NCBI RefSeq assembly: GCF_040719375.1
Contig: NZ_JBFDTP010000001.1
Location: 1-24,000, forward strand
From: Clostridium sp. AN503
GTDB lineage: Bacteria; Bacillota; Clostridia; Lachnospirales; Lachnospiraceae
Length of the DNA: 24,000 nucleotides
Direction of reading: 5' to 3'
Both the position numbers and the translations under genes were made by a program. The notes beneath the pieces are model-generated. The model saw only the letters and a program-made list of their open reading frames with translations, had not been told where the DNA came from and ran no database searches. This document shows positions 1-16,788 of the stretch, piece by piece. The number at the start of each line of letters is the position of its first letter. Within the stretch, counting starts at the first letter, position 1.

Positions 1-147
1 CATACTAAAGGTTGTTCTCATTATTTTCTACCTGCAAAATTATAAAAAGAATCATATTCTATTTTTTATATAAATTATAATAATAAGCGACTACAATTCG
101 CCTCTTGTTTCATGATTATCTCTTATACTTATACAAGGAGGGCGCAT

Positions 148-489
148 ATGGACTATACTTTTATATCAGGAAGAATTCTTACATTATTGGAAAAACACAA
201 TGTAACAGAATACGAACTCAGCATGCAGCTCGGACGGTGCCGGAGTTATATCAATAAAATCACGTCCGGCAAGGCGATGCCCTCTATGAAGGGATTTCTT
301 GACATCTGTGATTATTTTCAGATCACGCCGGAGGAATTTTTTAGCAGCCAGAATGTCAATGATATACAGACCATACGGAAAATCACACGGGATCTGAAGG
401 ATTTGGATTCCTCCTCCCTGGATCTGATATCGGAGCTTGTGTCAAAATTGAAAAAACATAGGGATACGGAGGAGGATGCTCGTATATGA
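148..489 (+). CDS. Small XRE-family helix-turn-helix transcriptional regulator (no receiver domain)
   Basis: The ORF track gives 112..489. I prefer the ATG at 148 because AAGGAGG (135-141) lies 6 nt upstream. The N-terminal ~60 aa (ISGRILTLLEKHNVTEYELSMQLGRCRSYINKITSGKAMPSMKGFLDICDYFQITPEEFF) fit the Cro/C1 HTH pattern. The stop overlaps the next gene's start (ATGA at 486-489). Confidence 0.8.
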   Translation: MDYTFISGRILTLLEKHNVTEYELSMQLGRCRSYINKITSGKAMPSMKGFLDICDYFQITPEEFFSSQNVNDIQTIRKITRDLKDLDSSSLDLISELVSKLKKHRDTEEDARI

Positions 490-1787
490 CATGCTTTTTG
501 ATGATTCTGGGATTTTTCATATGTATCTTTGAGGAGCTAATGATCTATTCCGTATGTGATACCTTTTTAGAGAGACGTTTTTGTTTTAAATACCAGGACT
601 TTGTCATAATTGCATTTCTATCCTCCATCCTGTTTCTTGCCAATCAGCTTCATCATCCTCTTTTAAATGTTGCCGTTGCACTTATGACGTCTCTGACGAT
701 CGCATTGCTGCTCTTTACCGGTCTCATCCGAGAACAGCTGTACTGCTGCAGCCTTGCCTGTATGGTGATCTTTTCCACCGAACATGTTGGTTTTCGTCTG
801 CTTGGAGGAGAGTTATCCCGCTATGGCTTTCTTTCAACTATCCTTGCAACTATCATGATTAAGCTCACCTCATTTTTTATCCTTCAGGTGATCTGTCATT
901 ATGCCAAAAATAAAAAGATCCAATTCACTGGATCCAGAATAACCACCTGGTGTTTTTTTCTTTATCCGCTGACCTGTTTTATTCTGCTTATAGGGCTGCG
1001 CTACTCTCATATTAATGTGACACTGCATTCCTTTGGAGAAAAGATCCTGATTGTCGGACTGTTTCTCCTGCTTTTTTCTAATATGCTGCTGTTCTTTTTA
1101 TACGACTATATTATTTCTATAACGGAACAGGTACGGAAACATGAACTCAGTCAGACTAAGGATTCATTAACCCAGCAGCACTTTGCCATTCTTCAGGAGA
1201 CCAACACCAAATACGCATCTCTTTTACATGATGTGAATAACTACATCCAAACCATACAGACCCTGCAGCTTCAGAATGATTCTCTAAAAATAAAGAGTAT
1301 TTCCAATTCCCTGATGAATGAAATATCTGATATCAGCAGTCAAACCTTTTGCAGCTCGCCTGTTATTAATGCAATCCTGCATGAAAAACAACAGTCATCC
1401 CTGCAGAAACAGCTTGATTTTCGTGTCTTCGTGGAGCCATGTTTCCCCACCCCTGATATTCCTGACAACGACTTGATCAGTCTGCTCTGCAATCTGCTTG
1501 ATAATGCTATGGAAGCCGCTATCCAATGTACTGACGGATTTGTTGATGTTAAATTTTTTGTCAATGGGGCGTATCAGATCATAAAAATACAAAATCCCTA
1601 CAAAGATCATCCCAAGCATGACCAGAATCGTTTTTTCACATCAAAGCCAGACACTCAAAACCATGGTTTTGGTATCCGGCGAGTGGAAGCTATTGCAGAA
1701 AAACATCATGGTACACTGAAAATTTCTATGGAAGAGTCTCTGTTTACTGCCGTGGTACTGCTTCCTGTAAAAACAGCTCAGCAATAA
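486..1787 (+). CDS. AgrC-like membrane sensor histidine kinase (HPK10-type, GHKL ATPase)
   Basis: The first ~210 aa contain about 7 hydrophobic helices. The H-box-like LLHDVNNYI, N-box NLLDNAMEA and G-box HGFGIRRVEAIAEKHHG are present. The architecture and its position next to agrD/agrB match AgrC/ComD-type peptide sensors. Confidence 0.8.
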   Translation: MTCFLMILGFFICIFEELMIYSVCDTFLERRFCFKYQDFVIIAFLSSILFLANQLHHPLLNVAVALMTSLTIALLLFTGLIREQLYCCSLACMVIFSTEHVGFRLLGGELSRYGFLSTILATIMIKLTSFFILQVICHYAKNKKIQFTGSRITTWCFFLYPLTCFILLIGLRYSHINVTLHSFGEKILIVGLFLLLFSNMLLFFLYDYIISITEQVRKHELSQTKDSLTQQHFAILQETNTKYASLLHDVNNYIQTIQTLQLQNDSLKIKSISNSLMNEISDISSQTFCSSPVINAILHEKQQSSLQKQLDFRVFVEPCFPTPDIPDNDLISLLCNLLDNAMEAAIQCTDGFVDVKFFVNGAYQIIKIQNPYKDHPKHDQNRFFTSKPDTQNHGFGIRRVEAIAEKHHGTLKISMEESLFTAVVLLPVKTAQQ

Positions 1788-1793
1788 AGTCAT

Positions 1794-1862
1794 TACCAAT
1801 TTTTCTAAAAAACGTACCAATTTTTCTATTTTCAAATCTTGTCTGAGCAAATATGGTAGAAT
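1794..1862 (+). promoter_or_regulatory. Putative activator-dependent promoter of agrD-agrB: two perfect 14-nt direct repeats plus an extended -10
   Basis: TACCAATTTTTCTA occurs at 1794-1807 and again at 1815-1828, a 21-bp period. TGgTAGAAT (TG at 1854-1855, TAGAAT at 1857-1862) lies 32 nt upstream of the agrD ATG. There is no good -35 at 17-bp spacing; TTCAAA at 1831-1836 would give a 20-bp spacer. Confidence 0.45.
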
Positions 1863-1893
1863 ATTATAAAACATAGGATAAGGAGGTTTTTTC

Positions 1894-2061
1894 ATGAAAA
1901 ACTTAAAAAAGATCTGGAATACTTTAAACAGTCATGGTTTTATGTCCGCACTGAACTGTCTTGCGGTCATAGCAGTCATTAACTCCGTAAGCTCCACCTG
2001 CTTCTGGGATTTCTACCAGCCGGAGGTACCGGAATCCGCCCGCAGACTGGCAGAGAAGTAA
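1894..2061 (+). CDS. agrD: Cyclic-lactone autoinducer peptide precursor (AgrD family), 55 aa, absent from the ORF track
   Basis: My translation is MKNLKKIWNTLNSHGFMSALNCLAVIAVINSVSSTCFWDFYQPEVPESARRLAEK. AGGAGG (1881-1886) lies 7 nt upstream of the ATG. A hydrophobic N-terminal helix is followed by Cys-x4 and then the YQPxxP tail typical of clostridial AgrD peptides. The gene sits directly upstream of agrB with a 1-nt gap. Confidence 0.85.
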   Translation: MKNLKKIWNTLNSHGFMSALNCLAVIAVINSVSSTCFWDFYQPEVPESARRLAEK

Positions 2062-2062
2062 G

Positions 2063-2659
2063 ATGCTGAACCGACTCATCAGCCGTTTTATCAACCGGCA
2101 GATCGAGCAGGGCATCTTAAAACAGGAGGAGCGGGAAGCATACGAATATGGATATTTCCTGATTGCGCTGGAGATACTGAATATCTCCGTCATGGCGTTC
2201 ATCGGCATCCTTTTCCGATGCTTCCTGCCTCTCCTGTTTTTTACTGTATGCCTGATCCTGCTCCGCAAATATGCGGGAGGGATCCACGCATCCAGCTATG
2301 TGCGGTGCGCGGCAGTGTCCGCCGTCCTGGAACTGGCTGTGGTGTCCCTCCTGCGCACAGGTCTCTGGCAGCCATTGTTCCTTCCGGCGGCTCTGGCTGC
2401 CATATGCGGGTGCGCGGTCATCTGGAGCTTCAGCCCGGTAGCCGCAGCAGCCAAACCCCTTACCGGGGACGAAACCCTGCGTTTTCGCCGCACGGCCCGC
2501 AGGCGTCTCATTGCAGCCGCTGTACTGGCAGTCCTCCTTTTCGCACTCCGCCTTTATCTGTGGGCTTTTATTATGATGCTGGACTTTATCGTCATTGGAG
2601 GCGCCATGGGTGTGGCTTTGTTCCAGACGCACAGACAGAGACAGGACCAGGGAAGCTGA
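2063..2659 (+). CDS. agrB: Accessory gene regulator B (AgrB) membrane peptidase that processes AgrD
   Basis: The N-terminus MLNRLISRFINRQIEQGILKQEEREAYEYGYFLIALEILN and the motif LRKYAGGIHA are characteristic of the AgrB family. It is a polytopic membrane protein and lies immediately downstream of agrD. Confidence 0.85.
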   Translation: MLNRLISRFINRQIEQGILKQEEREAYEYGYFLIALEILNISVMAFIGILFRCFLPLLFFTVCLILLRKYAGGIHASSYVRCAAVSAVLELAVVSLLRTGLWQPLFLPAALAAICGCAVIWSFSPVAAAAKPLTGDETLRFRRTARRRLIAAAVLAVLLFALRLYLWAFIMMLDFIVIGGAMGVALFQTHRQRQDQGS

Positions 2660-2692: not shown

Positions 2693-4210
2693 TTATGCCG
2701 TCTGCACCGCCTCCGTCAGCGCCGCCTCCGTGACAGCATCCCCGTTTTTCCTGCTAAGCTCTTTATTAATCTGTCCGTTCGACATGATGAGAATGCGGTC
2801 GCAGAGCCGTTCCAGCTCATCCATCTCGGAAGATACCAAAAGCACGGCATTTCCGGCGTCTGCAATACTGCGGATCAGCCTTGCGATGGATGCCTTCGCC
2901 TCCACGTCGATCCCTACCGTAGGATCATCCAGCAAAAGGATCCTTGGCTGTATAAGCAGATTTTTTGCGAAAACAACCTTCTGTTGGTTGCCGCCGGAGA
3001 GATATTCCACCTCCTGTTCAATGCTGGTACATTTCAGATCCAGCTTTTCCTTCATCTCCTCAGCCCTGCGCCTGCTCTCCTCCTCACTGATAAATACTCC
3101 CTTTTTGAGCCGGTCCCAGATCGGGAGCAGCATATTGTATTTGATGGAGTGGATTCCCACAATCCCGCTTTTGCGCCGGTTCTCCGGGACAAAAGCCACG
3201 CCCCGTTTAATGGACAGCCAGGGCTTTCCTACCGGGATCTCCTCCCCGTCCAAAAGGATCCGGCCTTTATCCGGTTTGAGAAGGCCGTAGAGGCATTTCA
3301 TCAGCTCCGTCCTTCCACTCCCCAAAAGCCCTGCGATCCCCAGGATCTCGCCCGGATACAGCTCCAGGCTGACCTTCTTCACCTTGTCTCCCCAGGAAAT
3401 ATCCTCCGCCCGGAGCGCCGGTTTTGTGTAATCAACAGGTTTCTCCGGCGCTAAATACGCCTGATTCAGCTTCTTTCCCACCATCGCTTCCACCATCTCG
3501 GTGATCGTAAGCCCATCTGTCTTCCGGTCCATCTCCACCAGGCCGTTGCGCAGTACGATGGCTCTGTCGCATATCTGCATGATCTCCTGCATGTGATGGG
3601 AGATAAAAATGACCGCGATCTTCTGCTCTTTCAGCCTTCTCACAAAAGTAAAGAGCAGCTGGATCTCCTTGTGGGTCAAGGATGCCGTAGGCTCATCCAG
3701 GATCAGGACCGACGGGTTGTGCAGCAGCGCCTTCACGATCTCCACCAGCTGCTGGTTTCCGATCGACAGATTCTCCACCGTCTCCCGCGGATCGATCTCG
3801 ATCCCAAATTCCGCAAAGGCTTCCTCCGCCTTTTTTATACAGCTATTGTCATCGATCAGGCCCGTGCGTTTCAGCTCCCGGTTCAAAAACAGGTTTTCTG
3901 TCACAGTCATGGTCGGAATCAGGGAAAATTCCTGATAAACCATGGCAATCCCGCATTTTGCCGCTTCCGATGCACCGCGGATCGTAACCTCCCTGCCATC
4001 CACCTGGATCTGGCCCTTGTCAAGATGATAGACACCCGTCACAATCTTCATGAGCGTGGATTTTCCGGCTCCGTTAGCCCCTAATAGTCCCAACACCTCG
4101 CCCTTTTCCAGGCTGAAGGAAATCCCCTTTAAAACCTCGTTCTCAAAGAAGGATTTGTGGATATCTGTCAGCCGGAGCGCATACTCCTTCTCTTCTACCA
4201 TTCCGGCCAC
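2693..4210 (-). CDS. Sugar ABC transporter ATP-binding protein (CUT2 type, duplicated ABC domains)
   Basis: There are two Walker A motifs (GANGAGKST, GLLGSGRTE), two signature motifs (LSIGNQQ, LSGGNQQK) and two Walker B motifs (LILDEPT, LLLDDPT). The track start at 4210 is GTG; an alternative ATG lies at 4201. Either start overlaps the upstream gene's stop. Confidence 0.9.
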   Translation of the reverse strand: MAGMVEEKEYALRLTDIHKSFFENEVLKGISFSLEKGEVLGLLGANGAGKSTLMKIVTGVYHLDKGQIQVDGREVTIRGASEAAKCGIAMVYQEFSLIPTMTVTENLFLNRELKRTGLIDDNSCIKKAEEAFAEFGIEIDPRETVENLSIGNQQLVEIVKALLHNPSVLILDEPTASLTHKEIQLLFTFVRRLKEQKIAVIFISHHMQEIMQICDRAIVLRNGLVEMDRKTDGLTITEMVEAMVGKKLNQAYLAPEKPVDYTKPALRAEDISWGDKVKKVSLELYPGEILGIAGLLGSGRTELMKCLYGLLKPDKGRILLDGEEIPVGKPWLSIKRGVAFVPENRRKSGIVGIHSIKYNMLLPIWDRLKKGVFISEEESRRRAEEMKEKLDLKCTSIEQEVEYLSGGNQQKVVFAKNLLIQPRILLLDDPTVGIDVEAKASIARLIRSIADAGNAVLLVSSEMDELERLCDRILIMSNGQINKELSRKNGDAVTEAALTEAVQTA

Positions 4211-5391
4211 CCCACTTCTCTGCCGTCTGTTGTAAAGATCCCCTCTACCTTCGGCTCATTCTTTGAAATACCGCTCACCGGAGCCACATATGCCCTGGTC
4301 ACAAACATCTGGGCGCGGAATCCAAACACCACGGTGTCTCCAACCCTTGTCTGCTGCCCCTTCTCCGGCTGCAGGATACCATAGTAGTCAATGGCCTTTG
4401 GCTCCGGCAGCTCACAGCCGATGCGCTGCCTTAAAGCTTCGTCCGGGTCCGAACCTACACACGCCTTCACCTCATAGGGTTCAAACACCGGATCTACATA
4501 CATACCGCCACCGAAGCAATAAGGCTTCCCGCCATAGTAATGCGAAATCTCAGACACATAGATATAGGCGGGACGTTCCGGCATCTCCCTGTACGCATGG
4601 ATGGGCGTGGTGCCCGTAAGCCCATGCCCCGGCTCCACCTGGGTCACTCCATCCTCCGCAAGGCGCCTGAAAATATGGCTGGAAGTGGTGCCGGGCGCAT
4701 TGACCTCCAGCTTCGGATATCCGTTATGCCGGAGAAGCTCAGCGGTCTTTAACAGGGTTTCATAGTTATGGGTCGGATTGACAGATAATGTCTCCGGGTC
4801 ATAGAGCTGCGCCGGAAACGTGGCAATCCCTGAAAAGCTTAAGCCCTTCATGGAATCAATCCGGTGGGCAGTCTCCAAAATATCCTCATCCAGATACCCC
4901 GCCTCATGCCCATGATAAAAAGAATCCCCGTTCCCATATATCCGTACCATAATATTTTGATGCTCAGAGGGCTTTAAAGCTTTTGATATGGCCGCCGCCT
5001 TCTCATCATTGTATACCATCCAGTAGGCAGGGTTTAGGTCCACCGCCGCCCTGGTCTCTGCAAAGGGGACCTGGACAAGATGGCCCAGATGCCCGATCTT
5101 CATGCCGGCTGCTGCCATGGGCCTGGCGTCATTCATATCCACACAGACCCCGGCCTCGATCCCAGCTCTCATGACCGCCTGGATGGCGACCGGATTCCGC
5201 CCGATCTGCTTTGTCATGGCAAATGCTTTTAAGTTCCATTTCCCGGCTTCCTCTGCCATAAGCTTTGCGTTCTGATAGATCGTGTCAATATCCAGAACAT
5301 AGCAGTTTGCCGGGATCAGCCCTTTCTGATGAAGCAGGATACCCGCCTTGATCAGCTCCGGGTTTCTATTGATCAACTGGTTTAAAAACAT
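4195..5391 (-). CDS. YhfX-like PLP-dependent enzyme (alanine racemase fold, fold-type III)
   Basis: The N-terminus MFLNQLINRNPELIKAGILLHQKGLIPANCYVLDIDTIYQNAKL...AMTKQIGRNP resembles what I recall of E. coli YhfX, including the MTKQxGRNP lysine motif. GGGAGG lies upstream of the ATG. The family assignment rests on memory, not a search. Confidence 0.65.
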   Translation of the reverse strand: MFLNQLINRNPELIKAGILLHQKGLIPANCYVLDIDTIYQNAKLMAEEAGKWNLKAFAMTKQIGRNPVAIQAVMRAGIEAGVCVDMNDARPMAAAGMKIGHLGHLVQVPFAETRAAVDLNPAYWMVYNDEKAAAISKALKPSEHQNIMVRIYGNGDSFYHGHEAGYLDEDILETAHRIDSMKGLSFSGIATFPAQLYDPETLSVNPTHNYETLLKTAELLRHNGYPKLEVNAPGTTSSHIFRRLAEDGVTQVEPGHGLTGTTPIHAYREMPERPAYIYVSEISHYYGGKPYCFGGGMYVDPVFEPYEVKACVGSDPDEALRQRIGCELPEPKAIDYYGILQPEKGQQTRVGDTVVFGFRAQMFVTRAYVAPVSGISKNEPKVEGIFTTDGREVGWPEW

Positions 5392-5414
5392 AGATTTTCC
5401 TCCCTCATCATGAA

Positions 5415-6353
5415 TCAGTCATTTTTCGCTTCCCGCAGGCTCAAGGATACAGCCAGGATGATGATCAGGCCCCGCGCCATCATCTGTTCGGAGACAGACA
5501 ATCCCATCAGCAGCAGCCCGTTGTTCAGCATACCGATCACGATGGAGCCGATGATCGTTCCGATGATCGTCCCCTTGCCGCCGGAAAAGCTGGTCCCGCC
5601 GATCACGACCGCAGCGATCACGGACATGTTGTCATTTTCCCCCAGGGTATATCTGGCCCCATTTAACCGCCCCGCGTACAGGATTCCCGCGAATGCCGCC
5701 GTCAGTGCACAGATCGTCATGGCCTGGATCTTCACCCGGTCCACCTTGATACCGGAATATTTGGCCGCAGATTCATTCCCTCCGACTGCCAGCACGGCTC
5801 TCCCGAAAGGAGTCTTCCGGTACAGCAGATGGCCTAAGATCATGACAACGATCGTCCAAAGAAACAGTGTGGAGATCGGGCCAATATCCCCCGCCCCAAA
5901 TATAAAGTTGAACTTCCTGTTGGTAATGGGTACCGCCTCCAGGTTGGTCATGGTCCTGGCGATGCCTGCAAATACGCTGCTGGTGCCCAGTGTCACAAGG
6001 AACGCCGGGATCCTTACCTTGGCAACGATCAGGCCGTTGAACAGGCCGCTTACCGCGCCCACTGCCATCCCCGCCAGAACTGCCGGGAACCAGCCCGCAA
6101 CCCGGAGGACCAGAGCTGTCGTGAGCGCAGACATGGCTACCACTGCGCCGGTGGACAGATCGATCAGGCCCGCTGATATGGCAAAGGTCATCCCAACAGC
6201 TGCTACGGAGATCATGGTTGTCTGCCTTAAGATATTCATCATATTGGCATAGGACAGAAACCCTTTATCCCGGAGTATGATAGAAAATGCAACCAAAACC
6301 GTTATAAAACTAATGTAAACAATATACTTCTTGTACTCGAATTTCCTCGCCAC
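5415..6353 (-). CDS. Sugar ABC transporter permease (CUT2/RbsC-like)
   Basis: The protein is polytopic and hydrophobic, with a Gly/Ala-rich RbsC-like composition. It has a GTG start preceded by GAGGGG. It lies between the binding-protein and ATPase genes. Confidence 0.85.
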   Translation of the reverse strand: MARKFEYKKYIVYISFITVLVAFSIILRDKGFLSYANMMNILRQTTMISVAAVGMTFAISAGLIDLSTGAVVAMSALTTALVLRVAGWFPAVLAGMAVGAVSGLFNGLIVAKVRIPAFLVTLGTSSVFAGIARTMTNLEAVPITNRKFNFIFGAGDIGPISTLFLWTIVVMILGHLLYRKTPFGRAVLAVGGNESAAKYSGIKVDRVKIQAMTICALTAAFAGILYAGRLNGARYTLGENDNMSVIAAVVIGGTSFSGGKGTIIGTIIGSIVIGMLNNGLLLMGLSVSEQMMARGLIIILAVSLSLREAKND

Positions 6354-14754: not shown

Positions 14755-16788
14755 TTATACCCAGTTGGCACTCTTGCCTTTCTTTTTAGCGAGCCGGTAG
14801 GATGGATTGGGCGTTTCCACCCTGCGGACGGCAGATGTATCCCTGCATTCCCCGGCGACTGCTTCTAAGCGGTGCTCTCCTGAGATAGGAAGCCGGAATG
14901 TAAATACCCTGCTCCCCGTTTTCTTTTCAACCAGACGTCCGTCGCACCAGAGCGCCACTTCCGGCTGATTGGAATAGACTTTTATGATCGTTTCCTGTTC
15001 TGGTCTGTCCACGTAGCGGCTGCCGCATAGATGCACAAACGGCTCGCTGCTCCAGTATGCCTTGTACAGGTAGAAACTGTCCTTCTTCACCTTCCGGTCA
15101 AAGGTCACAAGACCCTTATGGTTCATGCCCGGCTCCCCGCCCTGGTCCCTGGCGTCCGCCGCAAAATCAAACATGTTCCACACGTGTGTTGCCCACAGAT
15201 ATGGGTTCCTCTCGAAACATTCCAGCATATATTCGTGGTAAACCGCCTGATATTCCTCCGTATGGTCTCCCCTGTGGGGCTTGGAAGAATGCAGGTTGGG
15301 CATCCCCTCACAGCCGTACTCCGAGTACCCCAGGCACCGCTTGGGATAGCGGAAATGGAAGAACCGCATCCACAGGTCATTTAGGAACAGCCCCGGCACA
15401 TACCAGCCCAGGTACAGATTCCATGACACCAGATCCGTGATATGGGCCGACGGATTGAACGGTCCGCACATGGCGTAGCAGGCCAGGGTCGTCAGACGGG
15501 TCGGGTCCATCTCATGGCAAAGGTCATTTAACAACCGGTGATTGTCCAGCATGTCCTTTTTGTCCTTTGTGGAAATGGTGATCTCATTGGACACGCCCCA
15601 GCAGACAATGGACGGGTGATTGTAGTTCTGGATGATCAGCTCCTTCATCTGGCTGACCGTATTCTCCCGGCCTCCCGGCATATGCTCGGAGATGTAGGGA
15701 ATCTCCGCCCACACCACCATGCCGTACTCGTCACACAGATCATAGAAATACTGGTCGTGCTGGTAATGGGCCAGCCGCACCGTGTTGGCGCCGATCTCCC
15801 GGATCAGCTCCATGTCTTTTCTGTGATGCTCTTTTGTGATGGCATTGCCCAGCCCCTTCCAGTCCTGGTGCCTCGACACGCCCTGAAGGGGGTAGCTGCG
15901 GCCGTTTAAGAAAAATCCCTTTTCCGGATCCACATGGAAGCTGCGCACACCGAACCTGCTGCTCACCTCGTCAACGACCTCTCCGTGGATCTCAAGATAC
16001 GCTGCTGCGGTGTAGAGGTACGGGTCGTCTATACCGTTCCAGAGGTGTACATCGGGGATGACTATGGTGCAGTCCGGGCCGATACCGGAGGCGACTGTGA
16101 CGCCTTCGGCGTCAAGGATGTCGATGCGGATCCTGGCGGAGGTGGTGCCGCCTGCGGAAGAGGTGCCGCCTGCGGAGGTGGCGGCGCCTACGGAAGTTGA
16201 ACCATCTGCGGAGGTGGAAACGCCTGCGAAGTCAAGGGCATTCGCCCCACAGTTTGTAAAGGTCTGCACCCGCACGCAGCCGTCTTTTCCTTTTACCTCC
16301 GGCGTGATCCAGATTCCGTTGCCGCCGTAATATTCCATGTCGAAATGCAGGCGGTTCACTACGATCAGGTTCACATCCCGGTAAATCCCGCCGTAGAAGG
16401 TGAAGTCTGCTTTCTGGGGGTATACGCGGCCGCTTATGCTGTTGTCTGCCTGGACGGACAGCAGAAGATTTCCGGTCCGGTCCAAAAAGTCCGTGATATC
16501 CACGCGGAATGTGGAGTATCCGCCGTCATGGGTGCACACTTCCCTGCCGTTTAGGCTGATTCTGGCGCTGGCATTGACGCCGCAGAACTCCAGATATACC
16601 CGCTCCTCGCCTTTTTGAAATTCGGGCATGTCCAGTTCCCGCTCATACGTGCACGTACCGCGCCAGTAATCGTTACCGCCATCCTGTCCATCCACGCTGT
16701 TCCAGGTATGCGGCAGATCCACCATGGATACCGTCCCGTCCGGTCCGGTGAATCGCCACCTGTCATTCAGATTTCTTGTTTTTCTCAT
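14755..16788 (-). CDS. Glycoside hydrolase family 2 (beta-galactosidase/beta-glucuronidase-like)
   Basis: The N-terminus has LNDRWRF. The TIM-barrel region has NTVRLAHYQ, the acid/base motif WGVSNE (E402) and the nucleophile motif YSEYG (E490). Near the C-terminus is GMNHKGLVTFDRKVKKDSFYLYKAYW. Confidence 0.85.
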   Translation of the reverse strand: MRKTRNLNDRWRFTGPDGTVSMVDLPHTWNSVDGQDGGNDYWRGTCTYERELDMPEFQKGEERVYLEFCGVNASARISLNGREVCTHDGGYSTFRVDITDFLDRTGNLLLSVQADNSISGRVYPQKADFTFYGGIYRDVNLIVVNRLHFDMEYYGGNGIWITPEVKGKDGCVRVQTFTNCGANALDFAGVSTSADGSTSVGAATSAGGTSSAGGTTSARIRIDILDAEGVTVASGIGPDCTIVIPDVHLWNGIDDPYLYTAAAYLEIHGEVVDEVSSRFGVRSFHVDPEKGFFLNGRSYPLQGVSRHQDWKGLGNAITKEHHRKDMELIREIGANTVRLAHYQHDQYFYDLCDEYGMVVWAEIPYISEHMPGGRENTVSQMKELIIQNYNHPSIVCWGVSNEITISTKDKKDMLDNHRLLNDLCHEMDPTRLTTLACYAMCGPFNPSAHITDLVSWNLYLGWYVPGLFLNDLWMRFFHFRYPKRCLGYSEYGCEGMPNLHSSKPHRGDHTEEYQAVYHEYMLECFERNPYLWATHVWNMFDFAADARDQGGEPGMNHKGLVTFDRKVKKDSFYLYKAYWSSEPFVHLCGSRYVDRPEQETIIKVYSNQPEVALWCDGRLVEKKTGSRVFTFRLPISGEHRLEAVAGECRDTSAVRRVETPNPSYRLAKKKGKSANWV

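Follow-up and report, generated by a model that had tools for sequence, protein, structure and literature searches.

A rearranged agr-type locus with an extra XRE regulator and a probable RHS-toxin output in Clostridium sp. AN503

The window analyzed here comprises the first 24,000 nucleotides (nt) of one of the two contigs, C1 and C2, that make up the assembly of Clostridium sp. AN503 (C2:1-24000). It opens with an agr-type quorum-sensing locus of four genes, all on the plus strand: an XRE or Cro/C1-type helix-turn-helix (HTH) regulator (148..489; 113 amino acids (aa); Pfam HTH_3, HTH_19, and HTH_26, E-values 3e-6 to 3e-5), an AgrC-like sensor histidine kinase of the HPK10 type (486..1787; 433 aa; HATPase_c_5, E 1.6e-22), the autoinducing-peptide precursor AgrD (1894..2061; 55 aa; TIGR04223, E 2.8e-8, 33.7 bits against a cut-off of 19), and the peptidase/exporter AgrB (2063..2659; 198 aa; PF04647, E 4e-31). 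A previous reading of this DNA, made from the sequence alone (hereafter the sequence-only reading), had named the same four genes at the same positions, and the Pfam and TIGR04223 matches agree with it. It had also reported that no AgrA was visible. We found a gene for a receiver-LytTR regulator 170 nt upstream, on the other strand and past the contig edge, where it is conserved with the locus and followed by the gene of a 3160-aa RHS protein.

Metagenome records call the start of the XRE gene at position 148, and an AAGGAGG ribosome-binding site precedes it; the ATG at 112 is an alternative start codon. The XRE stop codon and the kinase ATG share the tetranucleotide ATGA at 486-489, an overlap that the sequence-only reading had described correctly. 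The N-terminal half of the kinase is polytopic, with ∼6-7 hydrophobic segments within residues 1-205. The protein keeps a phosphoacceptor-like histidine, H248, in its H-box (LLH248DVNNY), as well as the N-box (NLLDNAMEA) and G-box (HGFGIRRV), as had been noted from the sequence; a comparison of the kinase sequence with the PDB returned only a generic match to ZraS. AgrB carries a catalytic-type pair, H75-x6-C82, seven residues apart, which is also the spacing of the catalytic pair of Staphylococcus aureus AgrB. In AgrD, the core SSTCFWDF is followed by the tail YQPEVPE, and relatives keep the core as CFWDF or CVWDF.

The region between the kinase gene and agrD holds two perfect 14-nt direct repeats, TACCAATTTTTCTA, with a period of 21 bp (1794..1828, plus strand), which we predict to be the AgrA (LytTR) operator of the agrD-agrB promoter. 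We infer that the promoter itself lies at 1839..1867 on the same strand (TTGTCT-17-TATTAT), from a consensus scan of the identical region of locus L024 combined with reading of the sequence; an alternative predicted element is TGgTAGAAT at 1854-1862. In the consensus promoter and terminator scans, promoter-like sites were no more frequent than in shuffled sequence. The locus thus has the components of an autoinducing-peptide system: an AgrB peptidase with a His/Cys pair, an AgrD with a Cys core and a charged tail, an HPK10-type kinase, a cognate receiver-LytTR regulator, and a direct-repeat site with a 21-bp period.

No receiver or LytTR gene adjoins the locus inside the window, and the only reason is that the first base of the window is also that of contig C2; positions 1..147 are only part of the 170-nt divergent intergenic region that separates XRE-agrC from the off-window agrA, which runs in the minus direction. 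We traced the identical XRE protein in public metagenome assemblies and read the upstream gene layout wherever enough DNA was present. These contigs come from gut-type samples, and the layout was invariable: a large protein, an opposite-strand 242-aa gene with Response_reg and LytTR domains, then XRE, kinase, AgrD, and AgrB. Seven independent metagenome contigs run from the reverse complement of the C1 start into the start of C2, with only the bases TAAT in between. The 23 nt of the intergenic region that are absent from the window side correspond to TAAT plus the reverse complement of C1:1-19. C1 starts 19 nt upstream of agrA (C1:20-748, divergent from XRE; 242 aa; Pfam Response_reg and LytTR), and the RHS gene comes after agrA. 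The layout is therefore RHS <- agrA <- [170 nt] -> XRE -> agrC -> agrD -> agrB, an order that is indeed noncanonical, with agrA divergent and XRE in front of agrC. Read from these junctions, the apparent lack of AgrA is an edge artifact of the contig end. The sequence-only reading had allowed for this outcome, as one of its two alternatives was a response regulator encoded elsewhere, given that only 147 nt were visible upstream. A conserved LytTR regulator directly ahead of the locus is also the finding by which that reading had said its claim would fail.

In genomes G005 and G006, from two other species of the genus, the homologue closest to the window kinase lies directly behind a LytTR regulator gene. 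When the G005 and G006 regulators were searched back against this genome, C1:20-748 was recovered at E 5e-45 and the next regulator at 8e-18; their kinases recovered the window kinase at E 1e-69 and 2e-58, with the next kinases at 5e-8 and 3e-6. Both agrA and the kinase are thus reciprocal best matches of the G005/G006 regulator-kinase pairs, and wherever the upstream sequence of a relative reaches far enough, agrA is conserved beside the locus. At the level of sequence, orthology shows that the kinase pairs with agrA, and phosphotransfer between them would be expected. We are highly confident, on these grounds, that agrA lies upstream of the window and is the cognate partner of the window kinase. 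A kinase search of genome contigs for relatives of the locus returned distant kinases only and gave no synteny information.

All six module genes are 60-81% identical in two metagenomic versions of the locus, L046 and L048, the former with other downstream neighbors (an MFS transporter and GH3 and GH2 glycosidases), which indicates that the module is inherited as a unit. In the window, a minus-strand operon for a sugar-type ABC transporter (ATPase and permease) and a YhfX-like gene with an alanine-racemase fold (2693-6353) converge on agrB. The GC content is ∼0.40-0.46 in XRE, agrC, agrD, and agrA and rises to 0.57 in agrB and 0.55 in RHS. We considered the break between agrD and agrB as the seam of a recent transfer and rejected this interpretation; relatives at 60-80% identity keep the same low/high pattern, so that the break is a stable feature of these genes.

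The RHS protein of 3160 aa contains a DUF6531 domain and matches RHS_repeat 31 times (E 1e-244). Its core ends in ...PLNYVDPSGH and is followed by a 342-aa tail, and a 185-aa open reading frame (ORF) lies downstream of the gene. With a repeat shell, a core-end motif, a C-terminal tail, and an adjacent ORF, it has the makeup of an RHS/YD-repeat polymorphic toxin, and the 185-aa ORF is probably the RHS immunity gene. The genome also contains a 97% identical paralogue of the RHS gene. Two IS110-like transposase genes (C1:12036-13220 and 15216-16000) lie just past the RHS and immunity genes, placing mobile elements on the flanks of the RHS region.

The TACCAATTTTTCTA repeat pair upstream of agrD keeps its phase in L046 and L048, and a similar pair, also conserved, lies between the stop codon of agrA and the start codon of RHS (C1:756-790). 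We trained a weight matrix on the agrD-upstream half-sites only and scanned both strands, 9.65 Mb in all, for pairs 20-22 bp apart. The agrD-upstream pair scored 40.2 bits, the top value genome-wide, followed by the two RHS-upstream copies (39.9 bits each) and by two orphan sites, at C1:1201909-1201943 (39.1 bits) and C1:2471206-2471240 (33.8 bits); the next best match reached 27.6 bits. In G006, where protein identity is only 28-36% and the order is colinear (XRE-agrA-agrC-agrD-agrB-RHS), a repeat of a different sequence, CAAAT(T/A)TTTCC, stands in front of agrD and again in front of RHS, each time with a period of 21 bp. The score of the RHS-upstream pairs, near that of agrD, and the repeat pairing in G006 are the strongest evidence that RHS is an output of the circuit. 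No AgrA-type repeat pair was found in the 170-nt agrA/XRE region, in which the best half-site is an unpaired one of 9.3 bits. Judging from these sites, control of the receptor genes thus seems to differ from that of the output genes.

Each of the two orphan sites belongs to an ∼89-nt element (C1:1201859-1201943, minus strand, and C1:2471206-2471290, plus strand) with two operator-like repeat pairs in tandem, one formed by two copies of TACCAATTTTTCTA with a 21-bp period and the other by two copies of TTTTCGCCA with a 20-bp period. The TTTTCGCCA type is the repeat found upstream of agrD in the second agr locus of this genome. Related copies of the element occur at C1:2809737 and C2:1153435. There is no obvious ORF downstream of the elements; orphan site A faces the terminator of a convergent gene, and a search of Rfam at this site gave no match. 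The elements could be targets common to both agr systems, acting through a small RNA or an antisense RNA.

Between the RHS-upstream repeats and the RHS start codon lies a very stable hairpin (C1:803-851) whose 3' arm includes the ribosome-binding site. The 122-nt leader region folds with -36 kcal/mol (z = -6.1), and four compensatory pairs are seen among three sequences. If the spacing is analogous to that at agrD, transcription from a candidate RHS -10 element, TATAAA (C1:818-823), would begin within the hairpin. We speculate that the hairpin might mask the ribosome-binding site in transcripts that read through from agrA and leave it free in transcripts from the induced promoter; it could also act as a terminator.

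The agr-RHS neighborhood recurs elsewhere. A second agr locus of this genome (L053, C2:1043251-1057000) has the order XRE-agrA-agrC-agrD-agrB-RHS. Its RHS frame is split into ORFs of 764 and 2473 aa, 51 nt apart, with another RHS fragment after them, and the agrB-RHS gap of 75 nt holds no repeats, which suggests that agrB and RHS are co-transcribed there. We also examined 250 other genera of the family, each represented by one genome, and found a homologue of the RHS N-terminal part in 21 of them. Among the loci with enough flanking sequence, one genome has the order agrC-agrD-agrB-XRE-RHS (G173) and another agrB-RHS (G076). With at least four genomes of three genera showing the adjacency, the agr-RHS link is recurrent but not universal.

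We lean toward the view that RHS is a quorum-sensing output, with AgrA binding and induction predicted from the operator sites. A competing explanation holds that RHS is not such an output and that agr and RHS merely share a variable island, the repeats serving in read-through control or recombination. It would account for the repeats at two sites that have no obvious downstream gene, for a stable hairpin that could be a terminator ahead of RHS, and for the lack of agr neighbors at most RHS homologues of other genera. We nevertheless judge it unlikely, though deserving of serious weight, given that the matrix recovered the RHS-upstream pairs at the level of the agrD operator without having been trained on them, that G006 pairs agrD and RHS through another repeat sequence, and that the adjacency itself recurs across genera.

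The remaining component of the locus is the XRE protein. Its HTH_3 match scores 27.2 bits against a Pfam cut-off of 23, and the Pfam search found neither a receiver nor a TPR domain, in keeping with the sequence-only description of a ∼113-aa protein that lacks a receiver. The AlphaFold model (predicted local distance difference test score, 73) consists of a five-helix HTH (helices 4-65) and two C-terminal helices, and the nearest folds found by Foldseek are small dimeric repressors or controllers: 3ivp, 3op9, the C-proteins of restriction-modification (R-M) systems, and SinR. We rejected an RRNPP-type peptide-binding regulator, as the 113-aa protein has two short helices after the HTH and no match to a TPR family.

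The close family of this XRE is small (seven clusters), and its members at 61-75% identity are always found at an agr locus. Those at 73-75% (L046 and L048) occupy the matching position directly before agrC and keep the 4-nt overlap with it, which confirms that the XRE-kinase adjacency seen in the window is conserved. The member at 61% identity (L052) is monocistronic and divergent from a colinear agrA-agrC-agrD-agrB operon. A more distant homologue (P0007, 44% identity) lies in a capsule locus, not at agr. The intergenic region between agrA and XRE has three blocks that are conserved across four loci, one of which has a different gene arrangement.

The sequence-only reading had suggested surveying genomes for the co-occurrence of this XRE family with AgrC-like kinases. 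Across 51 genomes of the genus, we found 25 AgrB loci in 15 genomes, 23 of them assessable, and a Pfam-verified Cro/C1 HTH gene is adjacent in 13 of these 23, a count to which no p-value is attached because related loci are not independent. HTH_3 matches make up ∼1% of the genes of this genome (47 matches), which puts the linkage far above chance. The HTH gene stands at the 5' flank of agrA in 10 of the 13 linked loci, and six loci of the genus share the colinear order XRE-agrA-agrC-(agrD)-agrB. In each of the two further agr loci of this genome, agrA is directly preceded by a Cro/C1 HTH gene.

Judged by linkage and by the modeled fold, XRE is best read as an accessory DNA-binding regulator of the agrA/agrC promoter region. 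That it regulates the receptor promoters specifically is a tentative proposal, which we would put somewhat below an even chance. We are more doubtful still about a wider version, in which a subclass of agr systems in the Lachnospiraceae would have XRE as an integral third regulator. XRE would then be a switch of the controller type that works on the agrA and agrC promoters and gates or delays the firing of RHS by quorum sensing. If this were true, firing might wait, for instance, for the levels of receptor or immunity protein to be established, and the translational coupling of XRE and agrC would fix the ratio of regulator to receptor. Together with the operator evidence, it would define a gut-commensal module of agr, XRE, and an RHS weapon, which we did not find in the literature searched.

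Alternatively, XRE could be a bystander, such as the remnant repressor of a mobile element, with no role in agr, and the locus would then be a rearranged agrACDB. Mobile DNA commonly carries XRE genes, the RHS region and the end of C2 have IS110- and IS66-type genes on their flanks, the agr-linked XREs are very divergent from one another, and the homologue in the capsule locus has no agr company. We give this explanation little credence, because it leaves unexplained why an HTH gene sits beside more than half of the assessable agr loci against a per-gene background of ∼1%, mostly 5' of agrA, why relatives at 73-75% identity keep the 4-nt overlap with agrC, and why the intergenic blocks are conserved together with XRE across two gene arrangements. 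Very improbable, finally, is the proposal of the sequence-only reading that the kinase signals to DNA through XRE, by sequestration and release or another route outside the phosphorelay, with no need for a LytTR regulator at the locus: pairs of a membrane protein and an XRE repressor do exist elsewhere, such as CylR1/CylR2 of Enterococcus faecalis, CylR2 is among the weak sequence matches of this XRE, and the conserved ATGA coupling and the missing receiver domain would suit it, but a conserved cognate LytTR regulator lies 170 nt upstream, the marks of the agrD and RHS promoters are LytTR-type repeats phased at 21 bp and not palindromes, XRE precedes agrA and not the kinase in most related loci, and it is monocistronic in L052.

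Taken together, these data make it likely that the locus is a complete but rearranged agr system of a human-gut Lachnospiraceae in two divergent units, with an extra XRE regulator, that switches on an RHS toxin at high cell density. In this model, AgrB would process AgrD to a cyclic peptide, probably a thiolactone on CFWDF as expected from its family, and the polytopic AgrC-like kinase would sense this peptide and phosphorylate the divergently encoded AgrA. Phosphorylated AgrA would then bind the 14-nt direct-repeat pairs with their 21-bp period at agrD-agrB, closing a positive feedback loop, and at the secreted RHS gene, its 97% paralogue, and the two orphan sites, so that the RHS toxin would be made at high cell density. 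The most likely role of XRE would be that of a dimeric repressor or controller at the divergent promoter region of agrA and XRE-agrC, which is free of repeats and where it may set receptor levels and the activation threshold.

Several observations weigh against this model. The junction between C1 and C2 is drawn from contigs of other samples rather than from reads of this assembly, and the two ends of C1 are inverted repeats, 97% identical over >7 kb, so that either end could abut C2. The inverted copies (C1:1-8677 and C1:3235688-3243687) span the 3' end of agrA and the RHS gene, and the second agrA copy is truncated by the end of C1; each end carries an agrA copy and then RHS, and either one would, on this layout, put an agrA copy beside the window. 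These copies probably explain the assembly break. The C-terminal domain of RHS resembles EndoU only weakly (E 0.004, short of the Pfam cut-off), and agr neighbors are missing from most of the RHS homologues that we inspected in other genera. The agr-linked XREs of different loci share only 14-19% identity and may have been recruited independently, with differing functions, and a comparison of the intergenic region in four loci yielded no convincing palindromic or shared inverted-repeat XRE operator.

As side observations on the structure of the assembly, the inverted copies at the C1 ends are a substrate for large inversions, and a set of IS66-family transposase genes lies at the end of C2 (C2:1579-1582.8 kb).

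The original puzzle, an agr system that lacks AgrA, does not exist. What remains is an agr locus in rearranged order that includes an additional, conserved XRE regulator and whose output is probably an RHS toxin. Peptide quorum sensing is poorly charted in abundant gut commensals, and if RHS is indeed an output, interbacterial killing by gut Lachnospiraceae would depend on cell density. As an additional regulator that recurs, XRE provides a new point of control, and the operator sites, the CFWDF core, and the gene set make the circuit directly testable. Our literature search turned up no publication that connects agr with an XRE gene or with RHS toxins; its coverage was incomplete and is no proof of absence.

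The agr2 locus of Clostridioides difficile has the order agrACDB (PMC3754575). Most relatives of the present locus in the genus use this clostridial order A-C-D-B. Like C. difficile agr2 and S. aureus agrBDCA, the AN503 locus combines AgrB, an AgrD with a Cys core and an acidic, proline-containing tail, a polytopic HPK10-type kinase, and a LytTR regulator, and its direct repeats have the 21-bp period of S. aureus P2/P3. It differs from both systems in that agrA lies on the opposite strand and heads the RHS gene, a Cro/C1 HTH gene precedes agrC, the agrA and agrC promoters lack AgrA-type repeats, and no RNAIII-like effector is evident.

The XRE protein resembles C.AhdI, C.Esp1396I, SinR, and 3ivp of C. 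difficile in combining a five-helix HTH with a short C-terminal helical extension in ∼110 aa. Its identity to the R-M C-proteins, SinR, and 3ivp is only 15-23%, and unlike it, those proteins are not known in any agr system. C-proteins time the expression of a toxic product from a neighboring promoter, a logic that would fit XRE at this locus.

A further parallel is offered by the class II bacteriocin loci of lactic acid bacteria (pln, spp, blp, and cbn), in which an HPK10 kinase and a LytTR regulator activate toxin operons via phased direct repeats. The present locus shares with them the combination of an AgrC-like kinase, a LytTR regulator, and a peptide pheromone, together with phased repeats before both the pheromone operon and a probable weapon operon with a putative immunity gene. 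The AN503 locus departs from them in its predicted cyclic peptide processed by AgrB, where they use a linear peptide with a GG leader, in its extra XRE regulator, and in its weapon, which is a 3160-aa secreted RHS polymorphic toxin instead of a small bacteriocin.

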